Assembly (NCBI GenBank): GCA_965223545.1
Contig: OZ245006.1
Span: 3,264,001-3,328,000 of the forward strand
Reading direction: 5' to 3'
Length of the DNA: 64,000 nucleotides
Source of the DNA: Planctomycetota bacterium
Lineage (GTDB): Bacteria > Planctomycetota > UBA1135 > UBA2386
Position numbers and translations under genes: made by a program. The notes beneath the pieces were generated by a model, which did not search any database, was not told the origin of the DNA, and worked only from the letters and a program-made list of their open reading frames with translations. Positions 24,998 to 54,228 of this stretch are shown one piece after another. Every line of letters begins with the position of its first letter. Position 1 is the first letter of the stretch.

Positions 24998-26869
24998 TCA
25001 GTCCGGATCCACCATCCGCTCCGGCGCCAGCCGCGCGGCGATCTCCTCGTTCAGCAAACCGCGGTCGCGCAACACGTCGGCGAGGCTCTTGCCCGACGCC
25101 AGCGCCTCGGCGGCGACCTCGGTCGACGGCCCGTAGCCCAACACCGGCACCAGGGCGGTCACCAGGCCGATGCTGTTCTCGACGAACTGCCGGCACTGGG
25201 ACTCGTTGGCGGCGATGCCCTCGACGCAGTTGGCCGCCAGGGTGCGCGCGGCGTTGGCGAGAATGCGCAGCGATTCGAGGATGCTGGCGGCGATCACCGG
25301 CTCCATCACGTTGAGCTGCAGCTGGCCCGCCTCGGCGGCGAGGGTGATGGTGAGGTCGTTGCCGATGACGCGGTAGGCGACCTGGTTGACCACCTCTGGG
25401 ATCACCGGGTTGACCTTGCCTGGCATGATCGAAGATCCGGGCTGCCGCGGCGGCAAGCGGATCTCACCGAGGCCGGCGCGCGGGCCGGACGAGAGCAGAC
25501 GCAGGTCGCTGCAGATCTTCGACAGCTTGATCGCCGTGCTCTTCAGCCCCGACGAGAACATGACGAACGCCTGCGTGTCCTGCGTCGCTTCGATCAGGTT
25601 GGGTGCGGCGGCCAGGCGCAGACCGCTGACCTCACACAGGCGCTCCACGACCCGCTTGCGGTAGCCCTTGGGCGTGTTGAGCCCGGTGCCGATCGCGGTG
25701 CCGCCGAGGTTGACGGTGCGCAGGTCGTCGCGCGCGCGCTGTAGCGCGTCGAGCTCCTGACGGAGGCTGACGGCGAAGGCGCCGAACTCCTGGCCCAGGG
25801 TCATCGGCACCGCGTCCTGCAGCTGGGTGCGGCCCATCTTGACGACGGTGGCGAACTCGGCGCTCTTCGCCTCGAACGCGCCGATCAACGCCTCCAGGCT
25901 GTCGACGAGCTCACGGCTGCTCAGGATGATGCCGACCTTGAGTGCGCTCGGGTACACGTCGTTGGTCGACTGCGAGCAGTTGACGTGGTTGTTCGGGTGC
26001 AGGCGGTCGTAGTCCCCCTTGTCGTGCCCGAGCAGCTCAAGGGCGCGGTTGGCCAAGACCTCGTTGGCGTTCATGTTGGTCGACGTGCCGGCACCTCCCT
26101 GCAGCATGTCGACGACGAAGTAGTCGTGCAGCTTGCCGGCGATCACCTCGTCGGCAGCGTCGGCGATGGCGGCGGCGACGTCGTCCGGCAGGGCGCCGCA
26201 GTCTCGGTTGGCGAGGGCGCACGCCTTCTTCACCATCGCCAGAGCCCGCACCAGATGGGGATAGGCATTGAGCCGGCCGCCGCCAATGTCGAAGTTGGTC
26301 AGCGCCCGCATCGTCTGCAGGCCGTAGTAGGCCTCGGCCTGCACGTGCCCATCGCCGAGCAGATCGTGCTCGACGCGCGTGCGACCGGTCGAGAACGCCT
26401 GCGTCACCCCGCTGGTGCGGAACAGAAGCTGATCGACGCGACCGACCACCTCCGCCAGCAAGCTCGCCAGCATCCTCTTCTCGAGCTCGTGGTCGTCGCC
26501 GACGAACTCCTTGACCCGGTCGCGGTGCAAGACGTCGACGGTCACGCCGGTCAGCGCGGTGGCCGTCGTCGAGTGCACCGAGTCGCCGATCATCATGCCC
26601 TCGCCGAGCACATCCCCGCGGACCAGCGTGGTCACCGCCCGGCGATTGCCGTAGACGTCCGCCCGGCTCAGCTCGACGCGGCCGGAACGCACCAGGAGCA
26701 GGCGCGCACGCGGATCGCCCTCGGCAAACAGCACCTCACCCTCCGCGTAGCTTCGCGGCTCGACCATCGCCAGTAGGCGCGCCACCTCGTCCGGCGCGAG
26801 GTTGGCAAAGATGTGCACCTGGCAGAAGGGATGCTCCTGGTGGGAGCCTGCGGTAAAGGGGTCGGTCAT
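24998..26869 (-). CDS. aspA: aspartate ammonia-lyase with an N-terminal cyclic-nucleotide-binding domain
   Basis: N-terminal LFAEGD..LLVRSGRVE..GDVLGE (cNMP fold), then GGAGTSTNMNANE, GRTQLQDAVP, GSSIMPGKVNP. Confidence 0.9.
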   Translation of the reverse strand: MTDPFTAGSHQEHPFCQVHIFANLAPDEVARLLAMVEPRSYAEGEVLFAEGDPRARLLLVRSGRVELSRADVYGNRRAVTTLVRGDVLGEGMMIGDSVHSTTATALTGVTVDVLHRDRVKEFVGDDHELEKRMLASLLAEVVGRVDQLLFRTSGVTQAFSTGRTRVEHDLLGDGHVQAEAYYGLQTMRALTNFDIGGGRLNAYPHLVRALAMVKKACALANRDCGALPDDVAAAIADAADEVIAGKLHDYFVVDMLQGGAGTSTNMNANEVLANRALELLGHDKGDYDRLHPNNHVNCSQSTNDVYPSALKVGIILSSRELVDSLEALIGAFEAKSAEFATVVKMGRTQLQDAVPMTLGQEFGAFAVSLRQELDALQRARDDLRTVNLGGTAIGTGLNTPKGYRKRVVERLCEVSGLRLAAAPNLIEATQDTQAFVMFSSGLKSTAIKLSKICSDLRLLSSGPRAGLGEIRLPPRQPGSSIMPGKVNPVIPEVVNQVAYRVIGNDLTITLAAEAGQLQLNVMEPVIAASILESLRILANAARTLAANCVEGIAANESQCRQFVENSIGLVTALVPVLGYGPSTEVAAEALASGKSLADVLRDRGLLNEEIAARLAPERMVDPD

Positions 26870-26999
26870 GGCGGTCGGGCCGACCCGCGTGGGGGCGGTC
26901 CGACGCGGATCGTGCCACAAGCGCGGCCGCCAGCCAAAGGCCTCGGCCGGCGGGCGCTCGCGGTTTGCACTGCCCGCCGCCAACCGCCACAGTGCGGCC

Positions 27000-27647
27000 G
27001 TGGAGACCCGCATCCTCCTGCTGTTCGCCCATCCCGCGCTGCACAAGTCGCGCGCCAACGCGCGGTTGTTGCGCGAGGCAGAAGCCCTCGACGGCGTCAC
27101 CGTGCACGACCTCTACGAGGAGTATCCCGACTTCGTCATCCACGTGGACCGCGAGCAGGCGCTGCTCTCGAGCCACGACCTGGTCGTCGCCCAACACCCG
27201 TTCTACTGGTACTCGACGCCGGCCATCCTCAAGGAGTGGCAGGACCTCGTGCTGGAGTACGGGTGGGCCTACGGCGAGGGCGGCGACGCGCTCGCCGGCA
27301 AGCAGTGGCTCAGCGTGATCACCACGGGCGGGGCGCGCGAGTCCTATCGCACGGGCGCGCACAACCGTTGGACGATGCGGCAGCTGCTCGCGCCGCTGGA
27401 CCAGACCGTGCACCTGTGCGGCATGGAGTACCTGCCACCGTTCGTCGTGCAGGGGGCGGGCAGGATGGACAGCACCGCGCTGGACCGCGTCGCCGGCGAG
27501 TACCGCGATGCGTTGGCCGGGCTGCGCGACGGCGCGGTGGATCTCGACGCGCTGCGGCAGCGCGACTACTTCAACCGCGACGCCGACGACAAGACTGACT
27601 GGCGCCCGCGCGACGCACGCATCGGAGGAACGACCAGTGCACGCTGA
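27000..27647 (+). CDS. kefG: KefF/KefG-type NAD(P)H oxidoreductase
   Basis: FAHPALHKSRAN, HDLYEEYPDF, QHPFYWYSTPAILKEWQD; precedes a KefB/KefC gene. Confidence 0.85.
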   Translation: METRILLLFAHPALHKSRANARLLREAEALDGVTVHDLYEEYPDFVIHVDREQALLSSHDLVVAQHPFYWYSTPAILKEWQDLVLEYGWAYGEGGDALAGKQWLSVITTGGARESYRTGAHNRWTMRQLLAPLDQTVHLCGMEYLPPFVVQGAGRMDSTALDRVAGEYRDALAGLRDGAVDLDALRQRDYFNRDADDKTDWRPRDARIGGTTSAR

Positions 27648-34591: not shown

Positions 34592-35176
34592 GTGATCAGC
34601 CACGACTCCGCTCCGCGCGGCGCGCCGACCCCGCCGGCCGACCTCGACAACCTGATCGTCGCGGCCATCCGGCGCCTGATGCGCGCGGTCGACCTGCACT
34701 CGCGGCGCCTCTACGAGGCCTGCGGGCTGACCGGGCCGCAGCTTGCAACCCTGCAGGAAGTCGCGCGTTCCGGCCCTCTACCGGCGAGCACCCTGGCGCG
34801 TGCGGTGCATCTGAGCGGCCCCACGATGACCGGCATCCTGACCCGCCTGGAGCGCCGCGGACACATCCTCCGGGCACGCGGCGATACGGATCGACGCACG
34901 GTTCAGGTGTCCATCACGAAGCTCGGGGCGGCCACGCTGGAACGGGCGCCTTCGCTGCTGCAGGATCGGTTTCGACGCAAGCTGTCGCAGCTGGAACACT
35001 GGGAGCAGCTCATGATGTTGGCCAACCTCCAGCGCATCGCGATGATGATGGATGCGGAGCAGCTGGACGCGGCGCCTCACCTGGTGGCCGATGCGGCGGC
35101 GCTGGACCGCGACGGCAGCGACCCGAGCGGGCCGTTGGCGGGCGGCGCGAAGCCGGGCGGCGCGCCTCCTGGCTGA
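34592..35176 (+). CDS. MarR-family regulator, EctR/CosR-like
   Basis: AIRRLMRAVDLHSRRL..GLTGPQL..TGILTRLERRG..DRR..APSLLQDRF..WEQ. Confidence 0.85.
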   Translation: MISHDSAPRGAPTPPADLDNLIVAAIRRLMRAVDLHSRRLYEACGLTGPQLATLQEVARSGPLPASTLARAVHLSGPTMTGILTRLERRGHILRARGDTDRRTVQVSITKLGAATLERAPSLLQDRFRRKLSQLEHWEQLMMLANLQRIAMMMDAEQLDAAPHLVADAAALDRDGSDPSGPLAGGAKPGGAPPG

Positions 35177-35264: not shown

Positions 35265-35597
35265 ATGCCTACCAAGAAGATCGAGGCCTACCTGAAGCCT
35301 TTTCGCTTGGCCGAAGTGCGGACGGCACTGGCAGAGGCTGGCTTCGACGTGATCCGCGTGCACGACGCCGAGGAGCTGCGGCCGACGGAGACCTACACCG
35401 AGACGGTCCAGGGGCAGCGCTACGAGATCGACGCGTCGCCGCGGGTGCTGGTCGTGCTCTTGGTGGAGGATCGCGAGCTGGAGCGCGCCGTCCGACTGAT
35501 CCAGTCCGTCGCGCGCACGGACCACCGCGGCGACGGCCGGATCTTGATCTCCGCGGTCGAGCAGCTGGTGCCGGTGGACCCGGACGAAGCGTCGTGA
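35265..35597 (+). CDS. P-II-like signal protein (divergent)
   Basis: KKIEAYLKPFRLAEVRTAL, ARTDHRGDGRILIS. Confidence 0.8.
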   Translation: MPTKKIEAYLKPFRLAEVRTALAEAGFDVIRVHDAEELRPTETYTETVQGQRYEIDASPRVLVVLLVEDRELERAVRLIQSVARTDHRGDGRILISAVEQLVPVDPDEAS

Positions 35598-36067
35598 TGC
35601 GGGCTCATCCGATCGCCGCGGGGCTGCTGCTGGCAGTCGGCCTCGCCGCGCAGGAGCCACGCGAGTTGCCCACGCCGGAATGGGTGCCCCCCCCACCGCT
35701 CGAGGCCGCATCCGCCGACGGTAGCTTCGGCCTCGCATGGCAGCCGATCGAGGCGCCCGCCGGCGGCTCGATCTCCTTCGACCTCGAAGAAACAACGCCG
35801 CAGGGCGAGCGGAACGTGCTGGACGCGGGACCGTTCGCCGGCGCCGCGCTCAGCGGCCGTGAAGACGGCACCTACACCTACCGGGTCCGCGCCCGCGCGG
35901 CCGACGGCGCCACCGGGGACTGGAGCGCGGCGTTTGCGGTTCACGTGCGCCACCACTCCCTGGCGCTCGCCATCGCCCTGTTTGCCATCGGCGCAGTGGT
36001 CTTCGTCGCCACCGCGGTGACCGTGATCGGCGGTGCCCGGCGCGCGTCGGCCGAGGCCAGTCGCTGA
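35597..36067 (+). CDS. exported FN3-like protein with a C-terminal TM anchor
   Basis: Signal peptide, LSGREDGTYTYRVRA..GDWS, C-terminal hydrophobic helix. Confidence 0.65.
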   Translation: MRAHPIAAGLLLAVGLAAQEPRELPTPEWVPPPPLEAASADGSFGLAWQPIEAPAGGSISFDLEETTPQGERNVLDAGPFAGAALSGREDGTYTYRVRARAADGATGDWSAAFAVHVRHHSLALAIALFAIGAVVFVATAVTVIGGARRASAEASR

Positions 36068-36079
36068 CCTGGATCCGCC

Positions 36080-37501
36080 ATGCACCCCACCATCCTCGAC
36101 CCCGGCGTCGCCGGCGCACTGCTCGCCATCTTCAGCGTCGTTTGGGTGTTTCTCGGCTGGTGGTGGGGCCGCAAGGCGTCCGGCCTCGACGACTTCATGC
36201 TGGCCGGTCGCCGGGTGGGCTTGGCGTTGGGCACGGCCACGGCGATGGCCACCTGGGTCACCAGCAACACGACCCTGGTGGCACCACAGCTGGCCTACCA
36301 ACTCGGCATCTGGGGGATGCTCGGCTACTCGCTCGGCTCGATCGGCCTGCTGCTGTTTGCGCCGATGGCGGCGCGCATCCGCGCGCTGATGCCGCGCGGG
36401 TTCACCAGCGGCGACTTCATGCGGCTGCGCTACGGCACGCTGACCTGGCGGGTGTTCCTGGTCGTGTCGCTGGTCTACAGCGCCGGTTGGCTCATCAGCC
36501 TCGGTACCGCTGGCGGGGTGCTGCTCGAGGCCCTCAGCGGGATTCCGTACGAAGTCGGGGCGACCGTCATCCTGACGATCTGCGTGCTTTACACGCTGCT
36601 CGGCGGCCTGCGCGCGGTGATCGGCACGGACTACATCCAGACCGTCGTCATCATCACCGGCCTGGTGGTGATCGGTGCGCTGACGCTGTCGGCCGTCGAC
36701 CTCGAGACCACGCACCGACACCTGGCCGAGGCGCGGCCGCGGCTGCTCGACATGCTGATGCCGGCAGCGGTGATGTTCCTGTTCAACAACCTCCTCTTCG
36801 GCGTCGGCGAGATCTTCCACTCCAACGTCTGGTGGAGCCGCGCGTTCGCCTTCGATCGAGGCGTCGGCTTCCGCGCATATCTGCTGGCAGGCCTGATGTG
36901 GATCCCGATCCCGATCGCCGCCGGCTTCGTCGCGCTTTCGGCCCCGGTTCTCGGCCTGTCGGTACCGCGGGCCGACATGGTCGGCCCCATGGTCGCCGCC
37001 GAAGTCCTCGGTTTCGGCGGTGCCGTGCTGCTGTTCGTCATCGTGTTCTCGGCGATCGCATCCAGCCTGGACTCGCTGCTGGCGGCGACCAGCGATCTGA
37101 TCGTCGAGGATGTCTACCGCAGACATTTGCGCCCGCAGGCAAGCCGCGAGCAGCTGCGACGCGCATCTTCGATCGTCATCCTGCTGCTCGGTGCGGTGAC
37201 TTGGGTCGTCTGCATGCTCGACATCACGACCCTGGCAAAGCTGCTGCACTTCACCGGTGCGCTGGTGGCGAGCACGATCTGGCCGATTGCGGCGGGCCTG
37301 TTCTGGCGGCGCGCCAACCCGACCGCAGCGTGGCTGGCGATGGCCCTGGGTTCGGTCGGCGGGCTGATCGCATACAACGCGATCGGCTTCTACGTCGCCG
37401 CCCTCGTCGGCGCGGCGATCTCGATGGTGATCGTCCTCGCCGGCGCCTGGCTGCGGCCGGCGGAGTTCGATTGGCGCACGCTGCAGGAGGCCGACGCATG
37501 A
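36080..37501 (+). CDS. sodium:solute symporter (SSS) family transporter
   Basis: DFMLAGR, ATWV, YTLLGGLRAVIGTDYIQ, SAIASSLDS; about 13 TM helices. Confidence 0.9.
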   Translation: MHPTILDPGVAGALLAIFSVVWVFLGWWWGRKASGLDDFMLAGRRVGLALGTATAMATWVTSNTTLVAPQLAYQLGIWGMLGYSLGSIGLLLFAPMAARIRALMPRGFTSGDFMRLRYGTLTWRVFLVVSLVYSAGWLISLGTAGGVLLEALSGIPYEVGATVILTICVLYTLLGGLRAVIGTDYIQTVVIITGLVVIGALTLSAVDLETTHRHLAEARPRLLDMLMPAAVMFLFNNLLFGVGEIFHSNVWWSRAFAFDRGVGFRAYLLAGLMWIPIPIAAGFVALSAPVLGLSVPRADMVGPMVAAEVLGFGGAVLLFVIVFSAIASSLDSLLAATSDLIVEDVYRRHLRPQASREQLRRASSIVILLLGAVTWVVCMLDITTLAKLLHFTGALVASTIWPIAAGLFWRRANPTAAWLAMALGSVGGLIAYNAIGFYVAALVGAAISMVIVLAGAWLRPAEFDWRTLQEADA

Positions 37502-37620
37502 CACTCCCTCTGGTCGTTCTCGAAGTGCTCGTCTACGCAGCACTCGTGACCAGCGCCGTGACGCCGGTCGCCCTCGTCTGGCTGCTGGTTCGCGACTGGA
37601 GATCGGGCAAGCTGTGGTGA
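37498..37620 (+). CDS. 40-aa small membrane protein
   Basis: MTLPLVVLEVLVYAALVTSAVTPVALVWLLVRDWRSGKLW; ATGA-coupled to the SSS gene and overlapping the next start. Confidence 0.65.
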   Translation: MTLPLVVLEVLVYAALVTSAVTPVALVWLLVRDWRSGKLW

Positions 37621-38696
37621 AAGCGCTGCAGCTCCTGCCCCGACTGCGCGAACCGGTGCAGGGGCGCACCCGCCACGTCGGCATCGAGCACCCACTCCGC
37701 CTGCTCGAGGCCGTACCGGAGGACCCACAGACCCTGTTGCGGCTCGGCAGCCGACACGTGGTGTCGTCGCTGCAGTTCGATCGCGAGGTCGTTCTGCAGC
37801 TGTGCCGGCTGGCCGCCGCCATCGAGAGCCAGCCCGCCCTCCGCCACTTGCCGCTCACCGGCAAGATCCTGATCACTGCGTTCTACGAGCCGAGCACCAG
37901 GACGCGCCTGTCCTTCGAGAGCGCGTGGCACCGGCTCGGCGGCGACATCTTGTCGATCACCGATCCCGAGACCACCGGGATCGCCAAGGGGGAGAGCCTG
38001 GCCGACGTCGCCGAGATGTTCAGCAACTACGGCGACGCGGTAGTCCTGCGCGACCGCAACGAAGACTCGGTGTTCGAGATGATCGACACGCTGCGCGTGC
38101 CGATCATCAACGCCGGCAACGGGATCGACGAGCATCCCACGCAAGCCCTCGCCGACCTCTACACCGTGTTCAAGTGGCGGCCCGAGCTGACGGGGCCCAA
38201 CGTCACCGAGCGCGTGCGTTTCGGCGTGATCGGCAACCCGCGCAAGATGCGCACCGTGCGCAGCCTGCTGCGCCTCCTGTGCCTCTTCTCCTCCGTGATC
38301 GAAGAGGTCGTCATCGTCAATCCCGAGACCGATCTGTTCGACGATGGCGAGCGCGAGCGACTCGAGGACTCCGGGCTGCGCATCGGCACCGAACGCCGCC
38401 TGGGAGCGGCCCTGCGCGAGCTCGACGTGATCTACATCAACTCGATCGCCTGGATCGGCGATACCTTCGAGCGGCTGACCGGCGATCTGCGGCTGACGGC
38501 GCGCTCCTCGTTCAAGCCCGGCGCGATCGTGCTCCACCCCCTCGCCCGCGGCGAGGAGCTGGCCGTCAGCCTGGATGACACCCCCCACAACTGGTACTTC
38601 AGCCAAGCGCGCGGCGCGACCTTCTTGCGAATGGCATTGCTGACCAGCATGGTCGAGCGCGTGCACCGGGTCGCCGACGTCCGCCCGCCTCGTTGA
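37614..38696 (+). CDS. aspartate carbamoyltransferase-like transcarbamylase, probably with altered substrate
   Basis: FYEPSTRTRLSF, KGESL, HPTQALADL, HPLAR; lacks the RxQxER motif. Confidence 0.85.
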   Translation: MVKALQLLPRLREPVQGRTRHVGIEHPLRLLEAVPEDPQTLLRLGSRHVVSSLQFDREVVLQLCRLAAAIESQPALRHLPLTGKILITAFYEPSTRTRLSFESAWHRLGGDILSITDPETTGIAKGESLADVAEMFSNYGDAVVLRDRNEDSVFEMIDTLRVPIINAGNGIDEHPTQALADLYTVFKWRPELTGPNVTERVRFGVIGNPRKMRTVRSLLRLLCLFSSVIEEVVIVNPETDLFDDGERERLEDSGLRIGTERRLGAALRELDVIYINSIAWIGDTFERLTGDLRLTARSSFKPGAIVLHPLARGEELAVSLDDTPHNWYFSQARGATFLRMALLTSMVERVHRVADVRPPR

Positions 38697-38730: not shown

Positions 38731-40788
38731 ATGTGCGGAATCGCCGGTGTGCTCCACCGCGACCCCGAGCGCCGCGTAGACCGCGGCACCTTGGCGGCAA
38801 TGGCCGCGATCCAGCAGCACCGCGGACCGGACGGCTGCGGCTGGCACGCCATCGACGACCGCGGTGTGGGGTTCGCACACGCCCGATTGGCGATCATCGA
38901 TCTCAACGACAGCGGGCGCCAGCCGCTCCTCGACGGCGGTGGCCGGTGGATGTTGACGCACAACGGTGAGTTCTACGACTACGCACGCATCCGGGCCGAC
39001 CTGACGACGCGCGGCGCGCGGTTCACCACGAAGAGCGATTCGGAGATCGTGCCCCATCTCGTCGCGCACTACGGACTGGACGGCGCGCTGCCTCATCTGC
39101 GCGGTGAGTTCGCGTTCGCGTTCTACGACCGCGAGACCGACGAGCTGGCGCTGGTGCGCGACCGGTTCGGGATCAAGCCGCTCTACTGGACCATGACCGC
39201 GGACACCGTGGTGTTCGGCTCGGAGATCAAGGTCCTGTTCGCCCATCCCGAAGTGCCGCGCGCGTTTGCCGACGAGGGGCTGTTCCACCAGCTCATGCAG
39301 GCGATCACGCCGGGCAGCACGCCGTATCGCGATGTGCACCAAGTGGCGCCGGGCCACGTCGTCCGCATCCGCCGCCGGGGCGGCGGCTTCGAGGTCCGCG
39401 AGCACGCTTACTGGGACATGCCGTTCCCGGTGTGGAACGAGCGGCGGCCGGACGCCGCCGAGGACGAGGTCGTCGAACAGGTCCGCGCCCGGCTGCTGGA
39501 GGCCGTGCAGCTACGACTGGTGGCGGACGTCCCGGTCGGCTGCTACCTCTCCGGCGGCATCGACTCCTGCTCGATGTTGGGGCTCGCCGCCGCCTGCCGC
39601 CAGGATCCGGTCAAGGCCTTCACTATCGGCTTCGACAACCGAGACTACGACGAAACCGAGATCGCCAAGTCGATGGCGCACTCGGTGGGCGCCGATCAGG
39701 ACGTGCTGCCAGTAGGGGCGGCCGAGTTGTACGACCACTTCGTCGAGACCCACTGGCACACCGAGCGCACGATCTACAACACGCTGGGCGTCGCCAAGCT
39801 GCTGATGAGCCGCCATGTGCGCAACGCCGGCTACAAAGTGGTGATTACCGGCGAGGGCTCGGACGAGCTGTTTGCCGGCTACCCGAGCTTTCGCGCCGAT
39901 TTGTTCCGCCATGGTCTCGAGCACCTGCCGGCCGCCGAGCGCGTCGGCATGGAGCAAGCGCTGCAGGAATCCAACGCGGTCTTCAAAGGCGCGATGCTGC
40001 CGTCGCAGGCCTACGACGACCCCGCGCTCACCGCGCTGTGCGGCTTCACCCCGACCTGTCTGCAGCCCTGGCTCGACGCGTCGCGCCGGGTACTGCCGCT
40101 GATCGCCGGCGACCGCCGCACCGCGCTGGCCGACTACCGCCCGGGCGAAGCGATCGCCAACGCGCTCGACGCGAGCGCCATTCGCGGGCGCCACCCGCTC
40201 GACATTGCCCAGTACGTCTGGGTCAAGACGATGCTCGAAGGGCAGATCCTGACCTGGGGCGGCGATCGCGTCGACATGGCGAACTCGATGGAGGCCCGGC
40301 CGGCGTTCCTCGACCATCATCTCGCCGAGTACGCAGCCGGCATCCCGCCGCACCTCCGCATCCGAGCGCGCACTGAGAAGTACGTGCTGCGCGAAGCGAT
40401 GAAAGGCGTCTTGCCGCGCGAGCTGTACGAGCGCGAGAAGTTCGCGTTCATGGCACCACCGGCGCACACCGACCCGCGCAAACAGGCGGCCCTGCGGGCA
40501 CTGACCGACCGCTACTTGTCGGCGGCGGCGATCGAGCCCGCGGGTCTGCTGGACGCGGACGCGGTGCGCGCGCTGCTCCGGCTGCAGGACAGCGGCGACT
40601 TGCCACGGGCGGAGATGGTCCAGCTCGACGCGGTCGTCAACCACTTGCTCGGTGTGCAAGTGCTGCACGAACAGCTCTTGGCGCACGACATCCCGGCGAC
40701 CGCCGCGCGCTTGGCCGCACCGCTGCTGGCCGACACACCGCCACAACCGTCGCCGGCGGATGGCGGCTTCACCAACCCCTCGCCGTGA
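38731..40788 (+). CDS. asnB: asparagine synthase-family glutamine amidotransferase
   Basis: MCGIAG N-terminal Cys, [33 protein letters not shown]. Confidence 0.9.
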
Positions 40789-41548
40789 AGCCACCGTCGA
40801 CCGCGAGCGATTGGCCGGTGACGTAGCTCGCGTCCGCACTCAGCAGGAACGCGATCACGCGCGCCACTTCTTCCGGCTGGCCGACCCTGCCCAGCGGGGT
40901 GTGCTCGCGGATTCGCTCGGCGGTCCCCGGCCGCTGCAGGACCGGCTGCACCAGCGGTGTGTCGATGTACCAGGGCGCGACCGCGTTGACGCGGATGCCA
41001 TCGGCGCCCCATTCGCTGGCGAGGCCGCGCGCCATCGCATCGATCGCCGCCTTGGTCGCGGCGTACGGAACACCCGAGCCGACCGAGACCGTGCCGGCAA
41101 CCGAGCCGACCAGGACCACGCTGGCCGCATCCGAGGCCCGCAGCCATGGATGCGCGCGGCGCGTCAGCTCGAAGGCGGAGTCGACGTTGGTGGCGAACAG
41201 GTGCGCAACCTCTTCGCGCGCATAGTCGACCGCCGGGCGGCGGATATTGGTGCCGACGTTGGCCACGATGAGATCGAGCCCGCCCCACCTCTCGCCGACC
41301 GAGGCGAGGATGGCAGTCAGACCGACTTCGGTCGAGGCGTCGGCCGCGACGCCGGTGACCGCCACGAGCCCGCGGCGCCGCCAGTCCGCGACCGCAGTCT
41401 CGACGCCATCGGCACTCCGAGCGACGATCGCGACCTCGGCACCCGCCCCCAGCAACTGCTCGGCGGTGGCACGGCCGATGCCCTGGGTCGCCCCGGTGAT
41501 CAAGGCTCTGCGGCCGGCGAGAGAGGGAAACGCGACGGTGTCGGGCAT
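40769..41548 (-). CDS. SDR oxidoreductase (tropinone reductase-like)
   Basis: [30 protein letters not shown]. Confidence 0.9.
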
Positions 41549-41657: not shown

Positions 41658-43115
41658 ATGCACCGACCCCTTGCTTCCGCGATGTGGCTACCCGTTTGCG
41701 CATCCACGATCGCCCTGACCGCGTTGGCTGCCTCCGCACAAGTCAGCCGCAACGTTCAGCTCCTCGGCCAATACACTCCGGCCTCCAGCTCCTTCAGCGA
41801 CGTCTGGGGCTACACCGATCCAGCGACCGGCAAAGAGTACTGCCTCATGGGCAGCCTTGCCGGCACGCACATCGTCGACTGTAGCGACCCGACGAGCCCG
41901 ACCGAGGTCGGGCTGATCCCCACCGACGCACCGTTCACGTTCTGGAACGCATGGCGCGACATCAAGACCGTCGGCACCTACGCATACATCGTCTCCGAGG
42001 CACACGGGGGGATGCAGATCGTCGACTTGACCAACCCCGCCGCCGCGACCAAGGTCAAGACCTGGGGATCGTGGAGCGGCGCGCACAACATCGCTGCCGA
42101 CCCCGAGGCGGGCTTGGTCTACGTCTGCGGTACCGGGTCGGGCACCTACGTCGTGGACGTCGCTACCGATCCGGTCAACCCCGCGCAGCTCTTCGTGCTG
42201 GGGTCGCCGTACATCCACGACCTCTCGGTCGCCGATGGCGTCGGCTACTTCATGGACCAGAACGGCAACAACCTCAACGTCTACGACACGTCGTCACCCG
42301 GCAGCCTGCCGCTGCTGGGCTCCGGGCGGATGCCCGGCGCCAGCGTGGCGCACGCCAGCTGGCCGAGCCGCGACGGCACGGTTTGCATCGCCAGCAACGA
42401 AGCCAACGGTGGGCCGATCTCGATCTGGGACATCAGCAACAAGCGCATGCCGATGCTGCTGAAGACGTACACCGCCGGCCCGAGCAGCGCGATCCCCCAC
42501 AACCCGTTCATCAGAGACCGCGTCGCCCACATCTCGTACTACACCGAGGGCTATCGCTCGCTCGACCTCAGCGATCCGACCAACCCGGTCGAAGTCGGCT
42601 ACTACGACACCTCGACCTTCCCGGCCGGCGGCTACAACGGCGCCTGGGGCTGCTACCCGTTCCAGCCGTCGGGGGTGGTCTACATCACTGACATCGAGAA
42701 CGGCCTGTACGTGCTGAAGCCCGCATCGAGCGCGGAGCGCTACGGACCGACGACGACCGGCAGCGCCGGCGCGACCCCACAGATCTACGCGTTTGGCTCC
42801 GCCTATGCCGGCAACGCGAGCTTCAAGCTCGAGGTGGACGGCGCGCCGACCAGCCGCCCCGGGGTGATGGTGCTCGCCGCTGGTCGCGGTAGCACGACCG
42901 TCGGCAGTCTCACCGTCAACGTCGCAATCGGCGCCTCGACGGCCCTGGTGCCGATCGCCAGCGACCCCAACGGCCAGGTTTCGGTGCCCCTGCCGGTGCC
43001 CGCCGGCATCGCGGTGGGCGGCACGCTGAACGTGCAGATGCTTTTCGCGGACAGCACCCAGGCGCTCGATCTGTCGGGCACCCAGGGCCTCGAGTTCGAC
43101 GTCTTCGCCAAGTAG
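41658..43115 (+). CDS. choice-of-anchor B / LVIVD-repeat secreted protein with the shared C-terminal domain
   Basis: SDVWGY, WRDIKT, AHNI, YIHD, PHNPFI, GAWGCYPF; signal peptide. Confidence 0.8.
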   Translation: MHRPLASAMWLPVCASTIALTALAASAQVSRNVQLLGQYTPASSSFSDVWGYTDPATGKEYCLMGSLAGTHIVDCSDPTSPTEVGLIPTDAPFTFWNAWRDIKTVGTYAYIVSEAHGGMQIVDLTNPAAATKVKTWGSWSGAHNIAADPEAGLVYVCGTGSGTYVVDVATDPVNPAQLFVLGSPYIHDLSVADGVGYFMDQNGNNLNVYDTSSPGSLPLLGSGRMPGASVAHASWPSRDGTVCIASNEANGGPISIWDISNKRMPMLLKTYTAGPSSAIPHNPFIRDRVAHISYYTEGYRSLDLSDPTNPVEVGYYDTSTFPAGGYNGAWGCYPFQPSGVVYITDIENGLYVLKPASSAERYGPTTTGSAGATPQIYAFGSAYAGNASFKLEVDGAPTSRPGVMVLAAGRGSTTVGSLTVNVAIGASTALVPIASDPNGQVSVPLPVPAGIAVGGTLNVQMLFADSTQALDLSGTQGLEFDVFAK

Positions 43116-43187: not shown

Positions 43188-44603
43188 TCAGCCGCTGAAC
43201 ACGTCGAAGCGCATGCCACGGGTCGCGGCAAGGCCGGCGGCGGCGCCCGGGTCCGTGACGACGAACTGGGCGTAGACCACACCCGAGGTGGCGTCGCCCG
43301 GCGGAACCGCAATCGGCACGCGCACGGTGCCCGCCGCGTCGGTCTGCGCCGTCACCGCGATCACCGGCTGGCTGAGGTCGACCGCCAGCTGCACACCGGC
43401 GACCGCGGTGTTGCCGCTGGCCGCGCCCAGCAGGAGCACGACGCTGGCGTTGGCAGGCGCGTTGTCGAGCTCGACCGCAAAGTTGGCATTGCCGGCGAAG
43501 GCCGCGCCAAAGCTGTAGATCTCCGGCGCGCCGGCTGCGCCGTCGGTGGCGATGCCGAACAGATCGGGCGTCGCTTTGCTGTCGAGGATCATCAGGCCGT
43601 TGTTGCGGTCGCTCATGTAGACCACGCCGGATGGCTGGAACGGGTAGCACCCCCAGGAGCCGGAGAAACCACTGGTCGAAGACGTCGTGTCGTAGTGCGC
43701 GACCTCGACCGGCCGGCGCGGATCGCTGATGTCGACCGCACGGTAGCCCTCCGAGTAATAGGCGATGTGGACCACCCGATCGCGGATGAAGGCGTTGTGT
43801 GCCGAGGCCGAGTTGCTGCCGGTCTTGTAGACGGCAACCCTCGTCGGCAAGCGCTTGTTGCTGATGTCCACGATCGCGACGCCGGGGTTGAACGACTCGG
43901 CAGCGACCGAGGCCACGGTGTTGTCCCGGCTCGGCCAAATGTGGTGCGCCGAGGAGAACGACACCGAGCCCAGCACCGTCGTCGCCGGTGCCTGGGTCAC
44001 ATCACGCAGCTCGTAGCGCGAGTTGTTGATCTGTGCGAGATGCGCGATGCCGTCCCTCACGTGCAGGTCGTGCACGTAGGAGCCGCCCATGTTGCCCAAG
44101 TGCACGGGGTTGACCGGATCCGCGAGGCTGATGATCGGTACCCCGACGTCGGTGCCACACGGGTAGAGCATGCCCGCCCCGGTATCGAGGGCGACATTGT
44201 GGGCTCTGCGGAACACGTTGGTGCCCCAGGTCTTCACCAGCACCGGCTTGTCCGGATCCTGCAGGTCGATGATCTGCACGCCGCCGCCACCCTCGGTCAC
44301 CACGTAGGCGTAGTGCTGATAGGTGCGCATGTCGCGCCACCCTGAGTTGGGCCCCGAGAAGAAGCCGCGCTGGATCGGGTTGGTCGGGTCCGAGCAATCC
44401 ACGATGTAGGTGCCCGTGCCGGTGCCGAGGATGGCGTACTCCTTGCCCGCGGGGCTGACGTAGCCCCAGATGTCGTTGTAGGACTGGCCGGAGGGGTCGA
44501 AGCGGCCGACCAGGGAGGAGTTGCGAGGCGGAGCTTGCGCAGACAGGAGCGAGACGAGGGCCGCGGCGGTCACCGCCGCGACACAGCTGTGCCGAAACAT
44601 CAT
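43188..44603 (-). CDS. choice-of-anchor B / LVIVD-repeat paralog with the shared C-terminal domain
   Basis: NDIWGY, WRDMRT, AHNV, YVHD, AHNAFI, GSWGCYPF; signal peptide. Confidence 0.8.
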   Translation of the reverse strand: MMFRHSCVAAVTAAALVSLLSAQAPPRNSSLVGRFDPSGQSYNDIWGYVSPAGKEYAILGTGTGTYIVDCSDPTNPIQRGFFSGPNSGWRDMRTYQHYAYVVTEGGGGVQIIDLQDPDKPVLVKTWGTNVFRRAHNVALDTGAGMLYPCGTDVGVPIISLADPVNPVHLGNMGGSYVHDLHVRDGIAHLAQINNSRYELRDVTQAPATTVLGSVSFSSAHHIWPSRDNTVASVAAESFNPGVAIVDISNKRLPTRVAVYKTGSNSASAHNAFIRDRVVHIAYYSEGYRAVDISDPRRPVEVAHYDTTSSTSGFSGSWGCYPFQPSGVVYMSDRNNGLMILDSKATPDLFGIATDGAAGAPEIYSFGAAFAGNANFAVELDNAPANASVVLLLGAASGNTAVAGVQLAVDLSQPVIAVTAQTDAAGTVRVPIAVPPGDATSGVVYAQFVVTDPGAAAGLAATRGMRFDVFSG

Positions 44604-47033: not shown

Positions 47034-47156
47034 CTAAGGCATCGTCTGCGGAGCGTGCACTACCGCGAGCACGACGAACAGCACATCGCACACCAAGAAC
47101 AAGCCGATGCCGCCGACCACCAGGAGCCACGGGCGCTTGCGAATCGCGTTCATCAT
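47034..47156 (-). CDS. 40-aa membrane peptide, FixH/CcoH-like
   Basis: MMNAIRKRPWLLVVGGIGLFLVCDVLFVVLAVVHAPQTMP; ATGA-coupled to ccoG; too short for the ORF track. Confidence 0.6.
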   Translation of the reverse strand: MMNAIRKRPWLLVVGGIGLFLVCDVLFVVLAVVHAPQTMP

Positions 47157-48538
47157 GGTTGTTGTCTCCGCAGCGGCCCCAGCAGGGTGGTGCTGGAGCT
47201 CTGCTCTTCGTCGCCATCGCGCACGCGGACGCGCACGACCAGACCCGGCCGGAAGTCGACCCGCGCCAACCGAGCAAAGAAGGGAATCTGGCGATCGGCC
47301 AGCGGCCCGAGCTCGACATCGTCGATCGGCAGTAAGATCTCGACTCCCGGCGGCGCTTCGACCTCGATCTGCAACGTGCGGGCACTGGACCGCTTGTTCT
47401 GCAGGTAGACCTCGAGCACGTTCTGCAGCGTCTCACCCTCGACGGTGAACGGCGTCTGCGAAGCGCGCAGGAGCTGCGCCTCGAACGACGTCCTTCGCAC
47501 CGCGGAGAGGCCGAACACCACGATCCCCAGCAGCATCAGCACCGCGTAGAACCAGAATCGCGGACGCACGAAGCGACGCGCCTCGCCGGTGAAACCGGCC
47601 AGCGAGTCGTAGCGTACGAGACCGCGCGGCCTACCGATGTGATCCATCACCGCATCACAGGCGTCGATGCAGTTGGCGCAGCCGACACACTCCAGCTGCG
47701 TGCCGTTGCGGATGTCGATCCCGGTCGGGCACACGTCGACGCACCGCCGGCAGTCGATGCAGTGACCGGCGCCGTCGGCGCCGAGCTTGCCGCGTGGCTC
47801 ACCTCGCGCCTCGTCGTAGCCGACGTTGACGGTGTGCGCGTCGTAGAGCACGCCTTGTAGCCGCCCGTAGGGGCAGACGACGATGCAGAGCTGTTCGCGG
47901 AACCAGGTGAAGTTGACGAACATCACCAAAGTCAACACGACGACGAACACGAATGCGGTGAGGTTGTCGGCCGGCGGACGCACCATCGCACCGAACACCG
48001 CGTCCACCGGCATGAAGTAGCTGAGCAGAGTGTGCGCCAACAGCGACGCCAACACCGCGTAGACCGAGTACTTCAACAGGCGCGACCAGAGCTTGCGGCC
48101 TCGCCACGGTGCCGCATCGAGTGCCCGCCGCTTGCGCGCCGAGCCCTCGATCCACACTTCGATCTTGCGGAACACCCCCTCCAGGAACACCGTGTGCGGA
48201 CAGGCCCACCCGCACCAGACGCGGCCCCAGAGTGCGCTCAGCACGAACAGGCTGAACGCCGCGCCGGTGACCACGAAGAACGCCATCCAGAAGTCCTGCG
48301 GCGTGAACGTGGCGCCGAAGAAGAAGAAGTGCCGCCGCTCGATGTCGATCAGCACGGCCGGGTTGCCGCCGACCTCGATCCACGGCAGCACCAGATAGAC
48401 GACGATCAGCGAGACCCAGACGATGGCCTTGCGCCGCTGGAACCTGCCGGCCACCGCCGCCGGGTGGATCGCGTGGCGCGAGCCGTCCGGGTTGACCGAG
48501 TACAGGCTGTCGAGATCGGGCTGCCGGGTCGTCGTCAC
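47153..48538 (-). CDS. ccoG: cbb3 oxidase accessory protein CcoG/FixG
   Basis: GRVWCGWACPHTVF, CIVVCPYGR, CIDCRRCVDVCPTGIDIR, CVGCANCIDAC. Confidence 0.93.
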   Translation of the reverse strand: MTTTRQPDLDSLYSVNPDGSRHAIHPAAVAGRFQRRKAIVWVSLIVVYLVLPWIEVGGNPAVLIDIERRHFFFFGATFTPQDFWMAFFVVTGAAFSLFVLSALWGRVWCGWACPHTVFLEGVFRKIEVWIEGSARKRRALDAAPWRGRKLWSRLLKYSVYAVLASLLAHTLLSYFMPVDAVFGAMVRPPADNLTAFVFVVVLTLVMFVNFTWFREQLCIVVCPYGRLQGVLYDAHTVNVGYDEARGEPRGKLGADGAGHCIDCRRCVDVCPTGIDIRNGTQLECVGCANCIDACDAVMDHIGRPRGLVRYDSLAGFTGEARRFVRPRFWFYAVLMLLGIVVFGLSAVRRTSFEAQLLRASQTPFTVEGETLQNVLEVYLQNKRSSARTLQIEVEAPPGVEILLPIDDVELGPLADRQIPFFARLARVDFRPGLVVRVRVRDGDEEQSSSTTLLGPLRRQQP

Positions 48539-49101
48539 TGCGGCTCGTAGCGCTCGCCCTGCGGCTCCTTGCCGCCGGCGACGTTCGTGTTGCGAAGCGT
48601 CAGCAGGTAGGCGACGACCTGCTGGCACCGGGTGGGTCCGAGCTGTGGCAGCCAAGCCACCATTCCCTTGTCGATCACGCCTTCGGTGACGGTCCGGTAC
48701 AGATCGGTCGGCGCACCGCCGTGCAGCCAGTACTCATCGGTCAGGTTGGGGCCGACGCTGCCACCGCCGCTCTCCAGGTGGCACGTGACACACATGCCGA
48801 TGAACACCGCACGCCCCTTCTCGACCACGGTCGGCTCGGCAGCCAGCTTCTCCAGCAGCTCGTCGGTGATCTCCACGCCTTCCATCTGTGCCGCCAGCCG
48901 CCGCTCGGCGGCCTCCATCTGCAGCCGGTACTCCTGCTGCGGCAGGGGACCGGTGCCGAGCACGTGGTAATGCATCCAGTAGAACACTGAAAAGATGCAA
49001 GCGCCGTAGAAGGACCAGAGCCACCAGTTGGGCAGCCGGTTGTCGAACTCCTGGATGCCGTCGAACGCGTGGCTGCGCAGCCGCTCGTCGGTGCCGCTCA
49101 C
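48535..49101 (-). CDS. ccoP: cbb3 oxidase subunit III (monoheme)
   Basis: HAFDGIQEFDNRLPNWW, CVTCH, GPNLTD, KGM. Confidence 0.9.
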   Translation of the reverse strand: MSGTDERLRSHAFDGIQEFDNRLPNWWLWSFYGACIFSVFYWMHYHVLGTGPLPQQEYRLQMEAAERRLAAQMEGVEITDELLEKLAAEPTVVEKGRAVFIGMCVTCHLESGGGSVGPNLTDEYWLHGGAPTDLYRTVTEGVIDKGMVAWLPQLGPTRCQQVVAYLLTLRNTNVAGGKEPQGERYEPQ

Positions 49102-49274
49102 GACGACACCTCCTCGCCATCGGCCAGCGGCAGCTGTGCCATGCGCTGGTAGATCGGCCGCCGGCGCGGCCAGAACACGCGCACGATCACGCCGACGAAC
49201 AGCAGCATGAAGAACAACAGACCCCAGATCGGTAGATCGAGGAGGAAGCTGCGAGAGAACAGGGATTCGAACAC
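49098..49274 (-). CDS. ccoQ: cbb3 oxidase subunit IV
   Basis: 58 aa, LLFFMLLFVGVIVRVF...MAQLPLAD; lies between ccoNO and ccoP; not in the ORF track. Confidence 0.8.
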   Translation of the reverse strand: MFESLFSRSFLLDLPIWGLLFFMLLFVGVIVRVFWPRRRPIYQRMAQLPLADGEEVSS

Positions 49275-49275
49275 G

Positions 49276-51600
49276 TCAGTTGCCTCCCGCCGCGCCGACC
49301 TCGGTCGCGCGCTCGTTGTTGCCCAGGCGTTGTAGGTAGCCGATCAGGGCGACCAGCTCGCTGTCTTGCTCGGCCGGCAGCCCGAAGGTCGAGAGCTCGG
49401 CGACGATCGCACTGGCCTGCTCGCGAAACTCGGTCTCGGCGGCGTCGATGTCAGCGTCGGTGTAGGGCACGCCGAGCGCGCGCATCGACTTGAGCTTGAA
49501 CGGCGTCAGGCTCAGGTCGACGCGATCGTCCAGCAGCCAGGGATAGGCCGGCATGTTGGAGCCGATCGATACCTCGCGGGGATCGATCATGTGCCGGTAG
49601 TGCCACGCGTGGTTCGACTTGCCGCCGACGCGCGCCAGGTCCGGCCCGGTCCGCTTGCTGCCCCACTGGAACGGATGGTCCCACATCGACTCCTCGATGC
49701 GACTGGGCTCGCCGTAGCGCTGCCACTCGGCGCGGAACGGCCGGATCATCTGCGAGTGACAGGTGTAGCAGCCCTCGCGCACGTAGATGTCCCGACCTTC
49801 GAGCTCGAGCGGTGTGTAGGGCGCGACGGCGTAGTCGCCGGCCGCGGTCATCGGCACCTTCTTCTCGAGCACGATCCCGGGCAACAGCTCGACCAGACCA
49901 CCGGCGAGCACCGCCAGCGCAACCAGCAGCGAGAACGCCAACGGCCGGCGCTCGATCGTGTCGTGCCAGCTGAAGCGGCCTCCCGCGGCCGCCCGCGCGA
50001 GACCCCCAGCGGCCAACACACAGACCAGCGCCAACACGCCCAAGCCCACCGGCGCGGCGGTCGGCGACGCCATCAGAAAGAAGCCGATGAAGCCGACACA
50101 GGTCAAGACGAACGGCGTGCCGAACACCAGCCCGGCCGTGCTCGGACCACCGGTCTCGGGCACCAGCACCGTGACCTCGGCCTTGCCATCGACCTTCGCG
50201 CCCGCGGCGATCGTGCGCCACAGGTTCACGATCATCAGCAGCCAACCGACGATGAACAGACCACCGCCCAAGCTGCGGAACCAGTACGGCAGCTGCACCG
50301 CGGTGGTGATCTTGACCCACTCGGGATACTGCAGCGCGCCGTCGGCAGTCTGCGCACCCTGCATCAAGCCACTGGTCACGCCGGCGACCCACATCGATCC
50401 GACGTAGAACAGGATGCCGAAGATGGCGATCCAGAAGTGCCAGTCGGCCAGCGCCTTGGAGTGCAGCTTGGTGCCGTACAGCCGTGGCACCAGCCAATAG
50501 AACATGCCGGCGGCCATCAGGCCGTTCCAGCCGAGCGCACCCGAGTGCACGTGGCCGATGATCCAATCGGTGTAGTGGCCGAGCGCGTTGACGGCCTTGA
50601 CCGACAGCAGTGGCCCCTCGAACGTCGCCATGCCGTAGAAGGTGACGCCGGCGACGAAGAACTTGAGCACGGGGTCGGTGCGCACCTTGTGCCACGCACC
50701 GCGCAGCGTGAGCAGGCCGTTGAGCATTCCGCCCCACGACGGCGCCCACAGCATCAGGCTGAACAGCATGCCCAGAGACTGCGCCCAGTCGGGCAGCGCG
50801 GTGTAGAGCAGATGGTGCGGCCCCGCCCAGATGTAGAGAAACACCAGCGCCCAGAAGTGGACGATCGACAGGCGATAGCTGTAGACCGGCCGCCCTGCCG
50901 CCTTGGGCAGGAAGTAGTACATGATGCCGAGAATCGGCGTGGTCAAGAAGAACGCGACCGCGTTGTGCCCGTACCACCACTGCGTCAGCGCGTCCTGTGC
51001 GCCGGCGAAGATCCCGTAGCTCTTGGTCCCGGTCAGGGGCAGGGCCAAGTTGTTGACCACGTACAGGATCGCAATGGTCAGAATCGTCGAGATGTAGAAC
51101 CACAGAGCGACGTACAGGTTCTTCTCGTTGCGCTTCTTCAGCGTCCAGAAGAAGTTGACGCCGAACAGCACCCAGACCACCGCGACCGCCAGGTCGAGGA
51201 ACCACTCGAGCTCGGCGTACTCCTTCGACTGGGTGATGCCGAGCGGCAGGGTGATCGCCGCGCCCAGGATGATCAGCTGCCAGCCCCAGAGGTGGATCTT
51301 GGACAGCAGATCGGACGCCATCCGCGCCTTCAGCAATCGCTGGGTCGAGTAGTAGATGCCGGCGAACATCATGTTGCCGACCAGCGCGAAGATGACCGCG
51401 TTGGTGTGCAGCGGCCGGATCCGCCCGAACGTCAACCACGGCAACTCGAAGTTGAACCACGCCGAGCTCAGCTGCAGGGCGGCCAACAGACCGACCAACA
51501 TGCCGATGAGCCCCCACGCGATCGACCAGAAGATGAAGCCGCGCGTGACCCCGTCGTCGTAGACGATCTGGCGGGTCTCGAGTGTGTTTCCGGTGGACAT
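49276..51600 (-). CDS. ccoN: fused cbb3 oxidase subunits I and II
   Basis: RPLHTNAVIF, WWYGHNAV, WAGPHH, GHVH, then EGCYTCHSQMIRP and WGSKRTGPDLAR (CcoO). Confidence 0.95.
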   Translation of the reverse strand: MSTGNTLETRQIVYDDGVTRGFIFWSIAWGLIGMLVGLLAALQLSSAWFNFELPWLTFGRIRPLHTNAVIFALVGNMMFAGIYYSTQRLLKARMASDLLSKIHLWGWQLIILGAAITLPLGITQSKEYAELEWFLDLAVAVVWVLFGVNFFWTLKKRNEKNLYVALWFYISTILTIAILYVVNNLALPLTGTKSYGIFAGAQDALTQWWYGHNAVAFFLTTPILGIMYYFLPKAAGRPVYSYRLSIVHFWALVFLYIWAGPHHLLYTALPDWAQSLGMLFSLMLWAPSWGGMLNGLLTLRGAWHKVRTDPVLKFFVAGVTFYGMATFEGPLLSVKAVNALGHYTDWIIGHVHSGALGWNGLMAAGMFYWLVPRLYGTKLHSKALADWHFWIAIFGILFYVGSMWVAGVTSGLMQGAQTADGALQYPEWVKITTAVQLPYWFRSLGGGLFIVGWLLMIVNLWRTIAAGAKVDGKAEVTVLVPETGGPSTAGLVFGTPFVLTCVGFIGFFLMASPTAAPVGLGVLALVCVLAAGGLARAAAGGRFSWHDTIERRPLAFSLLVALAVLAGGLVELLPGIVLEKKVPMTAAGDYAVAPYTPLELEGRDIYVREGCYTCHSQMIRPFRAEWQRYGEPSRIEESMWDHPFQWGSKRTGPDLARVGGKSNHAWHYRHMIDPREVSIGSNMPAYPWLLDDRVDLSLTPFKLKSMRALGVPYTDADIDAAETEFREQASAIVAELSTFGLPAEQDSELVALIGYLQRLGNNERATEVGAAGGN

Positions 51601-51636
51601 CGGAAACCGAACGCGCCCGTCAGGGATTTCTTTCGA

Positions 51637-51804
51637 TCACTTTCGCGGTTGGCTCGACTGCTCCGGATCGTCGTCCTCGAGGGGCAACAGGGTCAGCCGA
51701 TCGGCGTGCTCGTGATCGCGCTGGCGCACGCTGAAGACGAACAGCAGGACACCGCAAGCGGCCAGAAACAGGCTGCAGAGCACCAAGAGCGGGACGACGT
51801 TCAT
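51637..51804 (-). CDS. ccoS: cbb3 oxidase maturation protein CcoS
   Basis: MNVVPLLVLCSLFLAACGVLLFVFSVRQRDHEH..LLPLEDD; coupled to ccoI. Confidence 0.8.
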   Translation of the reverse strand: MNVVPLLVLCSLFLAACGVLLFVFSVRQRDHEHADRLTLLPLEDDDPEQSSQPRK

Positions 51805-54218: not shown

Positions 54219-54228
54219 GCCCGAGGCA

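Follow-up and report, generated by a model that had tools for sequence, protein, structure and literature searches.

A Candidate Two-Enzyme Route to N-Carbamoyl-L-Glutamine-1-Amide Involving a Pseudo-Aspartate Transcarbamylase

Described Relatives and the Operon of the Window

The RxQxER motif is said to be common to all known aspartate transcarbamylases (ATCases), and no glutamine or asparagine transcarbamylase is included among the enzymes reviewed there (Shi, 2015, PMC4581275). Marine pseudo-ATCases, having HPLA together with AIA, AIS, or SIA motifs, were described by Barba, Dutoit, Legrain, and Labedan (2013, PMC4016543); the sections devoted to these proteins give no function. The HPLA row is labeled pseudo-ATCase 1 in the table and corresponds to marine group 3 in the text, and a HyuC-like N-carbamoylase is located nearby in nearly all cases (Barba et al., 2013). 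Another enzyme derived from ATCases, the ureidoglycine transcarbamylase (UGTCase) of Rubrobacter xylanophilus, is catabolic (Barba et al., 2013). For Synechococcus from warm, N- and P-poor water, an asnB-pyrB2-pydC cluster was reported, with an alternative pyrimidine route suggested for it and nitrogen recycling as a further reading (Dore et al., bioRxiv 10.1101/2022.08.17.504260).

The locus analyzed here belongs to the window, i.e., the whole stretch of 64,000 nucleotides from a Planctomycetota bacterium (genome herein referred to as G000). Related loci were found in 92 cases; the best 80 of these 92 were used for the conservation and linkage counts, and the 46 of these 80 with complete 7-kb flanks are herein referred to as full loci. 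The window operon includes the following genes, in this order and with three stop/start overlaps:

34592..35176, forward strand: MarR-family regulator at the head of the cluster (profile match; start codon uncertain)
35265..35597, forward strand: P-II-like protein (PF00543, 34.9 bits, over the cut-off of 25)
35597..36067, forward strand: exported, C-terminally anchored protein (homologue in 33 of the 46 full loci from the best 80 of 92)
36080..37501, forward strand: DUR3-related sodium:solute symporter (nearest relatives of solved structure: DUR3 urea symporters)
37498..37620, forward strand: 40-residue membrane peptide (overlaps both flanking genes, at the stop of the symporter and the start of the transcarbamylase)
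37617..38696, forward strand: transcarbamylase of 359 aa, a pseudo-ATCase of the HPLA clade (ORF, profile, structure, tree, and conservation)
38731..40788, forward strand: AsnB-like glutamine-dependent, ATP-dependent amidotransferase (TIGR01536, 414.8 bits, over the cut-off of 267.1)

The stop of the P-II-like gene overlaps the start of the following gene. The exported protein, a frequent predecessor of the symporter, had no match in the family libraries scanned, and the 40-residue peptide, which is probably a small subunit of the symporter, matched no library family over the cut-off. A convergent SDR gene (40769-41548) was rejected as an operon member, being matched in only one of the 80 loci (best 80 of 92), at 32%. 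Scanning of the locus for promoters and terminators gave nothing above shuffles. Elsewhere in the window, an aspartate ammonia-lyase carrying a cyclic-nucleotide-binding-like domain at its N-terminus (24998-27100, reverse strand) and a cluster for a cbb3-type oxidase, in which CcoN and CcoO are fused (774 residues; 47153-54344, reverse strand), were recognized by eye. The window also contains two convergent genes for similar-looking choice-of-anchor B proteins (41658-43115, forward strand, with a TIGR04312 match, and 43188-44603, reverse strand).

The window locus resembles those of the marine pseudo-ATCases. The enzyme has the HPLA, SIA, STRT, and HPTQ motifs, a Na+ symporter is located on one side and a gene for Asn metabolism on the other, and PyrB is encoded elsewhere. 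The enzyme has 62% identity to a protein of Nitrosococcus oceani ATCC 19707, and N. oceani is listed by Barba et al. (2013). The partner called asparaginase in that paper is here an asparagine-synthase-like amidotransferase, and, in contrast to nearly all the published loci, no HyuC-like gene was found at the window locus; a P-II gene is located there. The UGTCase of R. xylanophilus also has an altered 240s loop but differs by its H[ST]LP motif and by adjoining genes for carbamate kinase and allantoinase, neither of which adjoins the window enzyme. Going by the gene names, as well as the examined loci of Synechococcus, the asnB-pyrB2-pydC cluster of marine picocyanobacteria is the same cassette.

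Active Site and Family Position of the Transcarbamylase

The transcarbamylase is encoded by an intact ORF of 360 codons (37614-38696, forward strand). Its likely start is GTG 37617, from which residues are numbered herein, because this codon overlaps (GTGA) the stop of the upstream 40-codon peptide gene. A decayed pseudogene or recent foreign DNA was rejected, since the ORF is intact and its GC3 of 0.91 is like that of the neighbors. The motifs STRT, KGE, LRD, HPTQ, MRTVRSL, YINSIAWIG, and HPLAR were all found in the protein. In the alignment with ATCases of known structure and the PyrB of the same genome, YINSIAWIG aligns with YxTRxQxER, in a 240s loop that is shorter by 3-4 residues than that of ATCases. 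In the AlphaFold2 model (115-sequence alignment, pLDDT 87.6, pTM 0.89), this loop forms a β-hairpin, with low confidence (63) for residues 281-290; the model matches ATCases with a VIA Z of about 35 and an rmsd of 2.0-2.8 Å over about 290-320 residues. Thus, PyrB (ATC II, HPLP type) and the window enzyme share the fold, the carbamoyl-phosphate core, K84, and R167, whereas the latter lacks RxQxER, has the shorter 240s loop, HPLA, and Gly for S80, carries some 45 extra N-terminal residues specific to its family, and is found outside any pyr context.

E. coli residue numbers K84, R167, R229, and Q231 follow Shi (2015, PMC4581275), and H265-P268 follow Barba et al. (2013, PMC4016543). Among the 80 homologues (best 80 of 92), the R229 column contains A, S, or T (52, 20, and 8 sequences, respectively), and the Q231 column is never Q, being A in 78 of the 80. 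The further E. coli ATCase residues S80, H106, D162, and E233 were positioned by alignment. R229, Q231, and E233 of the 240s loop are missing in the window enzyme and in 80/80 homologues (best 80 of 92), confirming the claim of the first-pass annotation that the aspartate-binding YxTRxQxER is replaced by YINSIAWIG. To judge from these columns, the loss of the R229/Q231 pattern is neither chance nor decay.

Equivalents of K84, R105, H134, Q137, R167, and T168 are invariant in the same 80 homologues (best 80 of 92), so the KGE lysine and the α-carboxylate Arg are kept, as had been annotated. Near the acceptor site, N275 and W279 are new invariants; P208, M211, A310, and R332-G333-A334 are also invariant (80/80, best 80 of 92). 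The carbamoyl-phosphate site, which the same annotation took as kept, is only partly so: STRT, HPTQ, and HPLAR are present, but the equivalents of S80, D162, and P268 are lost. The Ser located three residues before K84 is found in 97/102 canonical enzymes and is Gly in 80/80 homologues (best 80 of 92); D162 and P268, found in 100/102 and 101/102 canonical enzymes, respectively, are lost in the pseudo-ATCase family. The 102 canonical rows were selected by their own RxQx[ED] motif, so only their other columns count in these comparisons. The annotated change of RH to RD is present but was rejected as a sign of specificity, because this column is D, S, or E in the pseudo-ATCase family, H is found in only 85 of the 102 canonical RxQx[ED] enzymes, and RH is retained by six outer members of the HPLA clade.

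With the equivalents of S80 and P268 lost, activity could be low. It is very unlikely, nevertheless, that the transcarbamylase is catalytically weak or dead and serves the amidotransferase in a structural or sensing role. The family-wide loss of the S80, D162, and P268 equivalents and the persistence of a sister clade devoid of all catalytic motifs would agree with such a role, but STRT, K124, R145, H173, Q176, and R212 are invariant in 80/80 (best 80 of 92) and in 114/114 sequences, and it is the clade devoid of catalytic motifs that has left the operon.

This dead clade was found by a profile search of 50% representatives, which gave 14 full-length proteins without STRT, KGE, and HPLA (P0243, P0247-P0249, P0251, P0252, P0254-P0257, P0259, P0262, P0263, and P0276; dead-clade loci L143-L148, L153, and L155-L167). 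They retain the N-terminal extension and structural motifs of the family and form one clade (SH-aLRT 100). For several of them, the name given by the source is aspartate carbamoyltransferase catalytic subunit. In a sample of 301 genomes from one gammaproteobacterial order, 35 were matched, and the 30 loci among the matches listed include 13 dead and 17 active ones. The amidotransferase gene adjoins 17/17 active loci and 0/13 dead loci (1.5-kb flanks, shorter in some cases where the contig ended). No active copy was found in the 13 genomes with a dead paralogue, and the best amidotransferase matches in these genomes have 30-39% identity vs. 58-79% for nearly all operon orthologues. Seven metagenome loci agree with this. 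The pattern ties catalysis to the amidotransferase partner, but the dead clade is a single lineage, and so the joint loss of motifs and amidotransferase counts as one event. A heteromer of active and dead paralogues is unsupported, since no genome of this sample showed both.

The best matches of the transcarbamylase are ATCase models, yet it scores under every cut-off (TIGR00670, 190.4 vs. 236.95; NF002032, 177.6 vs. 263). The NCBIfam models for YgeW and knotted transcarbamylases gave 28 bits against cut-offs of 453-500. The marks of ornithine transcarbamylases (DxxxSMG loop and HCLP) are missing, ArgF being a separate gene, and those of UGTCases are missing as well, with HPLA at the place of their motif and no arcC in G000. 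In the 88-row tree, built from a chosen subset of the 158 collected sequences (IQ-TREE quick, LG+G4, SH-aLRT only), all HPLA proteins and their dead relatives form one clade (SH-aLRT 100, branch 0.81) among HPLP-type ATCases, with a marine subclade of 16 rows (SH-aLRT 98). The separate transcarbamylase subfamily proposed from the sequence is therefore a clade of its own but not a new one, the group and its motifs having been published in 2013. By motifs, scores, and tree position, the enzyme is best classified as a member of this pseudo-ATCase family and not as an ATCase. Outside the HPLA clade, seven ATCase-like representatives (P0319, P0322, P0327, P0340, P0349, P0353, and P0356) have altered or partly altered 240s loops and HSLP, HCLP, or HPLP motifs; further non-aspartate enzymes may be among them.

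Four transcarbamylases are encoded in G000: the pseudo-ATCase, PyrB, ArgF (in the arg cluster), and an AOTCase-like protein. The canonical PyrB (L001:604-1941, reverse strand; G000:C1 near 390,000) has the RAQRER motif and passes both ATCase cut-offs; the pseudo-ATCase as the sole ATCase of the genome was thus rejected. This PyrB has a fused C-terminal PyrI zinc-binding domain (PF02748, 31.9 bits, cut-off 23.4) and an insert before the 240s loop, with a close relative in G001 (L127). ArgF and the AOTCase-like protein are both found in G000 (L004, at G000:C1:423,000, and L002), and G001 has the same set of four. CarB, a dimeric-type PyrC, and PyrF were also found in G000; a PyrC of the TIGR00857 type was not found in this genome. 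With PyrB, CarB, PyrC, and PyrF present, pyrimidine synthesis does not need the pseudo-ATCase. Among the 80, 20 carrier genomes were taken for long contigs and spread, and a separate canonical PyrB with RxQxER was found in 20/20, so the check suggested by the first-pass annotation, a canonical pyrB elsewhere, succeeded in G000 and in all of these.

A second, unusual aspartate transcarbamylase (pyrB2) acting in an alternative pyrimidine route, as briefly suggested by Dore et al. (bioRxiv 10.1101/2022.08.17.504260), is accordingly extremely unlikely. The database names and the ATCase fold agree with it, but RxQxER is absent in 80/80 homologues (best 80 of 92), canonical PyrB is encoded in G000 and 20/20 other genomes, and neither the window operon nor the six loci with listed ORFs showed a pyr gene. 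The motif loss likewise argues against the pyrimidine-route reading of asnB-pyrB2-pydC.

Linked Genes and the Symporter Pocket

The amidotransferase is linked to the transcarbamylase in 77 of the 80 loci (best 80 of 92), the three misses being cut by contig ends, and in 46/46 full loci. Among these 46 full loci (from the best 80 of 92), the symporter and an M20 N-carbamoylase were found in 43 each, an isochorismatase-family or DUF1028 hydrolase in 38, a MarR gene in 21, and a P-II gene in 6, including all three loci without a linked M20. In the 91% complete G000, the best M20 match has 26-31% identity and is located 0.8 Mb away, and the amidase has no match; the hydrolases were not found in four of the five genomes tested (G000, G001, G382, and G011), while G381 has both elsewhere. 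The operon of G387 has the order MarR-M20-amidase-transcarbamylase-amidotransferase, with no symporter. The only constant element across the loci is the transcarbamylase-amidotransferase pair. Since the window operon lacks hydrolases and the G387 operon lacks a transporter, this pair stands alone as a module, most likely a biosynthetic one.

The symporter is closest to DUR3 (E-value 6.5e-35 vs. 3.9e-10 for the next family). In Arabidopsis DUR3, the urea site includes W93, W95, T98, Y117, Q124, N305, Y315, and W338, and D312 and E402 are proton sites (PMC11840088). These positions were mapped in 73 homologues, some of them partial, with the Y461 column left aside. The symporter family retains W93, T98, Y117, and W338 of the urea site. 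W95 is replaced by T (62/62 sequences having a residue at this position), Q124 by G (63/63), N305 by G or S, and Y315 by W, and both proton sites are gone (D312 to S or N, E402 to L or V), so the full DUR3 urea-site and proton-site pattern is absent; E244 and H247 are new invariants. From these replacements, the symporter is predicted to carry a larger ureido solute in a sodium-coupled manner. NqrA is present in G000 and was counted in favor of the best explanation given below.

Catabolic transcarbamylases normally need a carbamate kinase. Genes for this enzyme were found in only 4 of the 21 carrier genomes, on other contigs, and none was found in G000. This distribution bears on scavenging, in which the symporter would import a ureido compound and the enzyme would run backwards by phosphorolysis, like UGTCase, with the carbamoyl phosphate feeding pyrimidine or arginine synthesis. 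Scavenging is unlikely. It draws support from the frequency of the transporter and the N-carbamoylase (43/46 full loci each, from the best 80 of 92), from the catabolic role of the related pseudo-ATCase of Rubrobacter (PMC4016543), and from the nitrogen-recycling reading of asnB-pyrB2-pydC by Dore et al. (bioRxiv 10.1101/2022.08.17.504260). However, carbamate kinase is absent from 17/21 genomes, the partner that never varies is a ligase consuming ATP, phosphorolysis would be redundant beside a linked N-carbamoylase, and the operon of G387 has no transporter.

Proposed Pathway and Distribution

The NAGGN pathway includes the Ngg acetyltransferase and the AsnO amidotransferase, with a peptide ligase step. 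The system studied here has a similar logic, in which capping of an α-amino group and subsequent amidation of the α-carboxyl by an AsnB-family enzyme would give a neutral glutamine-based solute, and a MarR gene is located upstream in both cases. It differs by the carbamoyl cap instead of the acetyl one, by the absence of a peptide ligase, and by a partner scoring under the AsnO cut-off; no Ngg-type acetyltransferase was found among the scanned window neighbors. The partner has intact Cys1, HNGE, SGGIDS, and GEGSDE motifs. It gave 281 bits with the AsnO model (TIGR03104, cut-off 570.1) and so is not an AsnO orthologue; its best score is with the generic asparagine synthase model. TIGR01536 also takes in amidotransferases with other acceptors, and two further AsnB-like genes were found in G000.

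The kept equivalents of K84 and R167 fit an α-amino acid as the acceptor. The earlier proposal of Gln, Glu, or Asn is supported as far as a non-aspartate α-amino acid is concerned, but the loop by itself does not show which of them is used. Judging by gene context and host range, Gln is the more probable choice. In the proposed first step, the carbamoyl group of carbamoyl phosphate, supplied by CarAB, would be transferred to the α-amino group of an L-amino acid, most likely glutamine, whose side chain would be neutral and longer than that of aspartate and whose free α-carboxylate would be held by K124 and R212. In the second step, the AsnB-like enzyme would activate this carboxylate with ATP and amidate it with nitrogen from glutamine. 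We infer the order, carbamoylation before amidation, from the kept α-carboxylate ligands, which imply a free carboxylate on the acceptor. The DUR3-type symporter would retrieve the ureido solute, and in most other hosts the isochorismatase-family amidase (or DUF1028 protein) and the M20 N-carbamoylase would remove the two caps, onto which these two hydrolases map. G000 would retain synthesis and uptake only. The operon M20 proteins gave 389-429 bits with the model of the N-carbamyl-L-glutamate hydrolase ErtE, under its cut-off of 520. Reaction direction, step order, acceptor, product, and a role in salt protection are all predictions.

It is likely that the transcarbamylase is the first enzyme of such a capped-amino-acid pathway. 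We lean only slightly toward a pathway where glutamine is carbamoylated and then amidated to N-carbamoyl-L-glutamine-1-amide (CGA), the osmolyte of Ectothiorhodospira marismortui/mobilis. Whether an L-glutamine transcarbamylase and its partner are the missing CGA pathway, and CGA is made far beyond one purple bacterium, is evenly balanced. CGA was reportedly described in a paper of 1991. Both its charged groups are masked, and it is accumulated by E. marismortui (Roberts, 2005, PMC1224877), which is a synonym of E. mobilis. Three proteins named as belonging to E. mobilis were found in the family, with 61% identity, and G387 has a transcarbamylase identical to an E. mobilis protein, with a 66% amidotransferase partner. 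Three related species are described as having no betaine or ectoine synthesis, with CGA among the candidate solutes for two of them (Imhoff et al., 2020, PMC7824335). All three, E. magna, Ectothiorhodosinus mongolicus, and Thiorhodospira sibirica, carry the enzyme. Its presence in these species and in E. mobilis is weak evidence, however, because 49 of the 55 genomes of the Ectothiorhodospira order have the gene, a frequency at which the producer would be likely to carry it under every interpretation. An ectoine synthase search run on G000 gave no match in any control. In the open-access literature, no paper joining the pseudo-ATCase family to CGA or assigning genes to CGA was found.

It counts against CGA that the generic asparagine-synthase score of the partner suits an asparagine route equally and that a solute with four nitrogens is costly in the N-poor water of the Synechococcus cluster. 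The P-II gene of the window operon points to nitrogen control, and together with N-poor habitats it fits nitrogen storage or scavenging as well. The same two-enzyme capping with Asn, Glu, or another acceptor, giving a nitrogen store or a different solute, is a possible but rather improbable alternative. The partner passes the asparagine-synthase cut-off and could make Asn from Asp, and the M20 enzyme resembles a carbamyl-glutamate hydrolase. E. coli ATCase has reportedly been used with L-asparagine, according to a paper title, which was counted for an asparagine acceptor. A nitrogen store would agree with the P-II gene in the window operon and with the enrichment of the Synechococcus cluster in N- and P-poor water (bioRxiv 10.1101/2022.08.17.504260). 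This alternative is disfavored because TIGR01536 is not limited to asparagine synthases, G000 has two more AsnB-like genes, and no N-carbamoyl-asparagine solute was found in the literature searched, while a species carrying the enzyme is known to have CGA as an orphan solute.

The novel elements are the proposed activity, the pathway logic, which repeats the NAGGN scheme with a carbamoyl cap, and an operon form that is led by P-II and has no hydrolases; further additions are the rebuilt urea pocket of the DUR3-type transporter and the sister clade of dead paralogues. If the proposal is true, an osmolyte orphaned since 1991 obtains its genes, and a published enzyme family named aspartate carbamoyltransferase in databases obtains a function, which would replace the alternative pyrimidine pathway for the niche-linked Synechococcus cluster. 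CGA would then be made by most Ectothiorhodospira/Thioalkalivibrio genomes, many marine Synechococcus, nitrifiers, spirochaetes, and planctomycetes, and, having its own DUR3-type importer, would form an unmeasured pool of marine organic nitrogen. This old orphan pathway can now be tested with two genes.

The named hosts of the family are, going by organism names, presumably mostly marine or soda-lake organisms. Among relatives, the gene was found in 1 of 60. No close family member was found in 400 other genomes of the same phylum; two outer-clade members were found there, and both retain the whole cassette. With such a patchy spread among kin, old transfer and repeated loss are both possible. 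One locus (L016) has a variant layout, in which the genes for the symporter and for a more distant amidotransferase (49%) diverge from those for the transcarbamylase and M20; at another (L048), an interruption of the transcarbamylase reading frame falls within the match.
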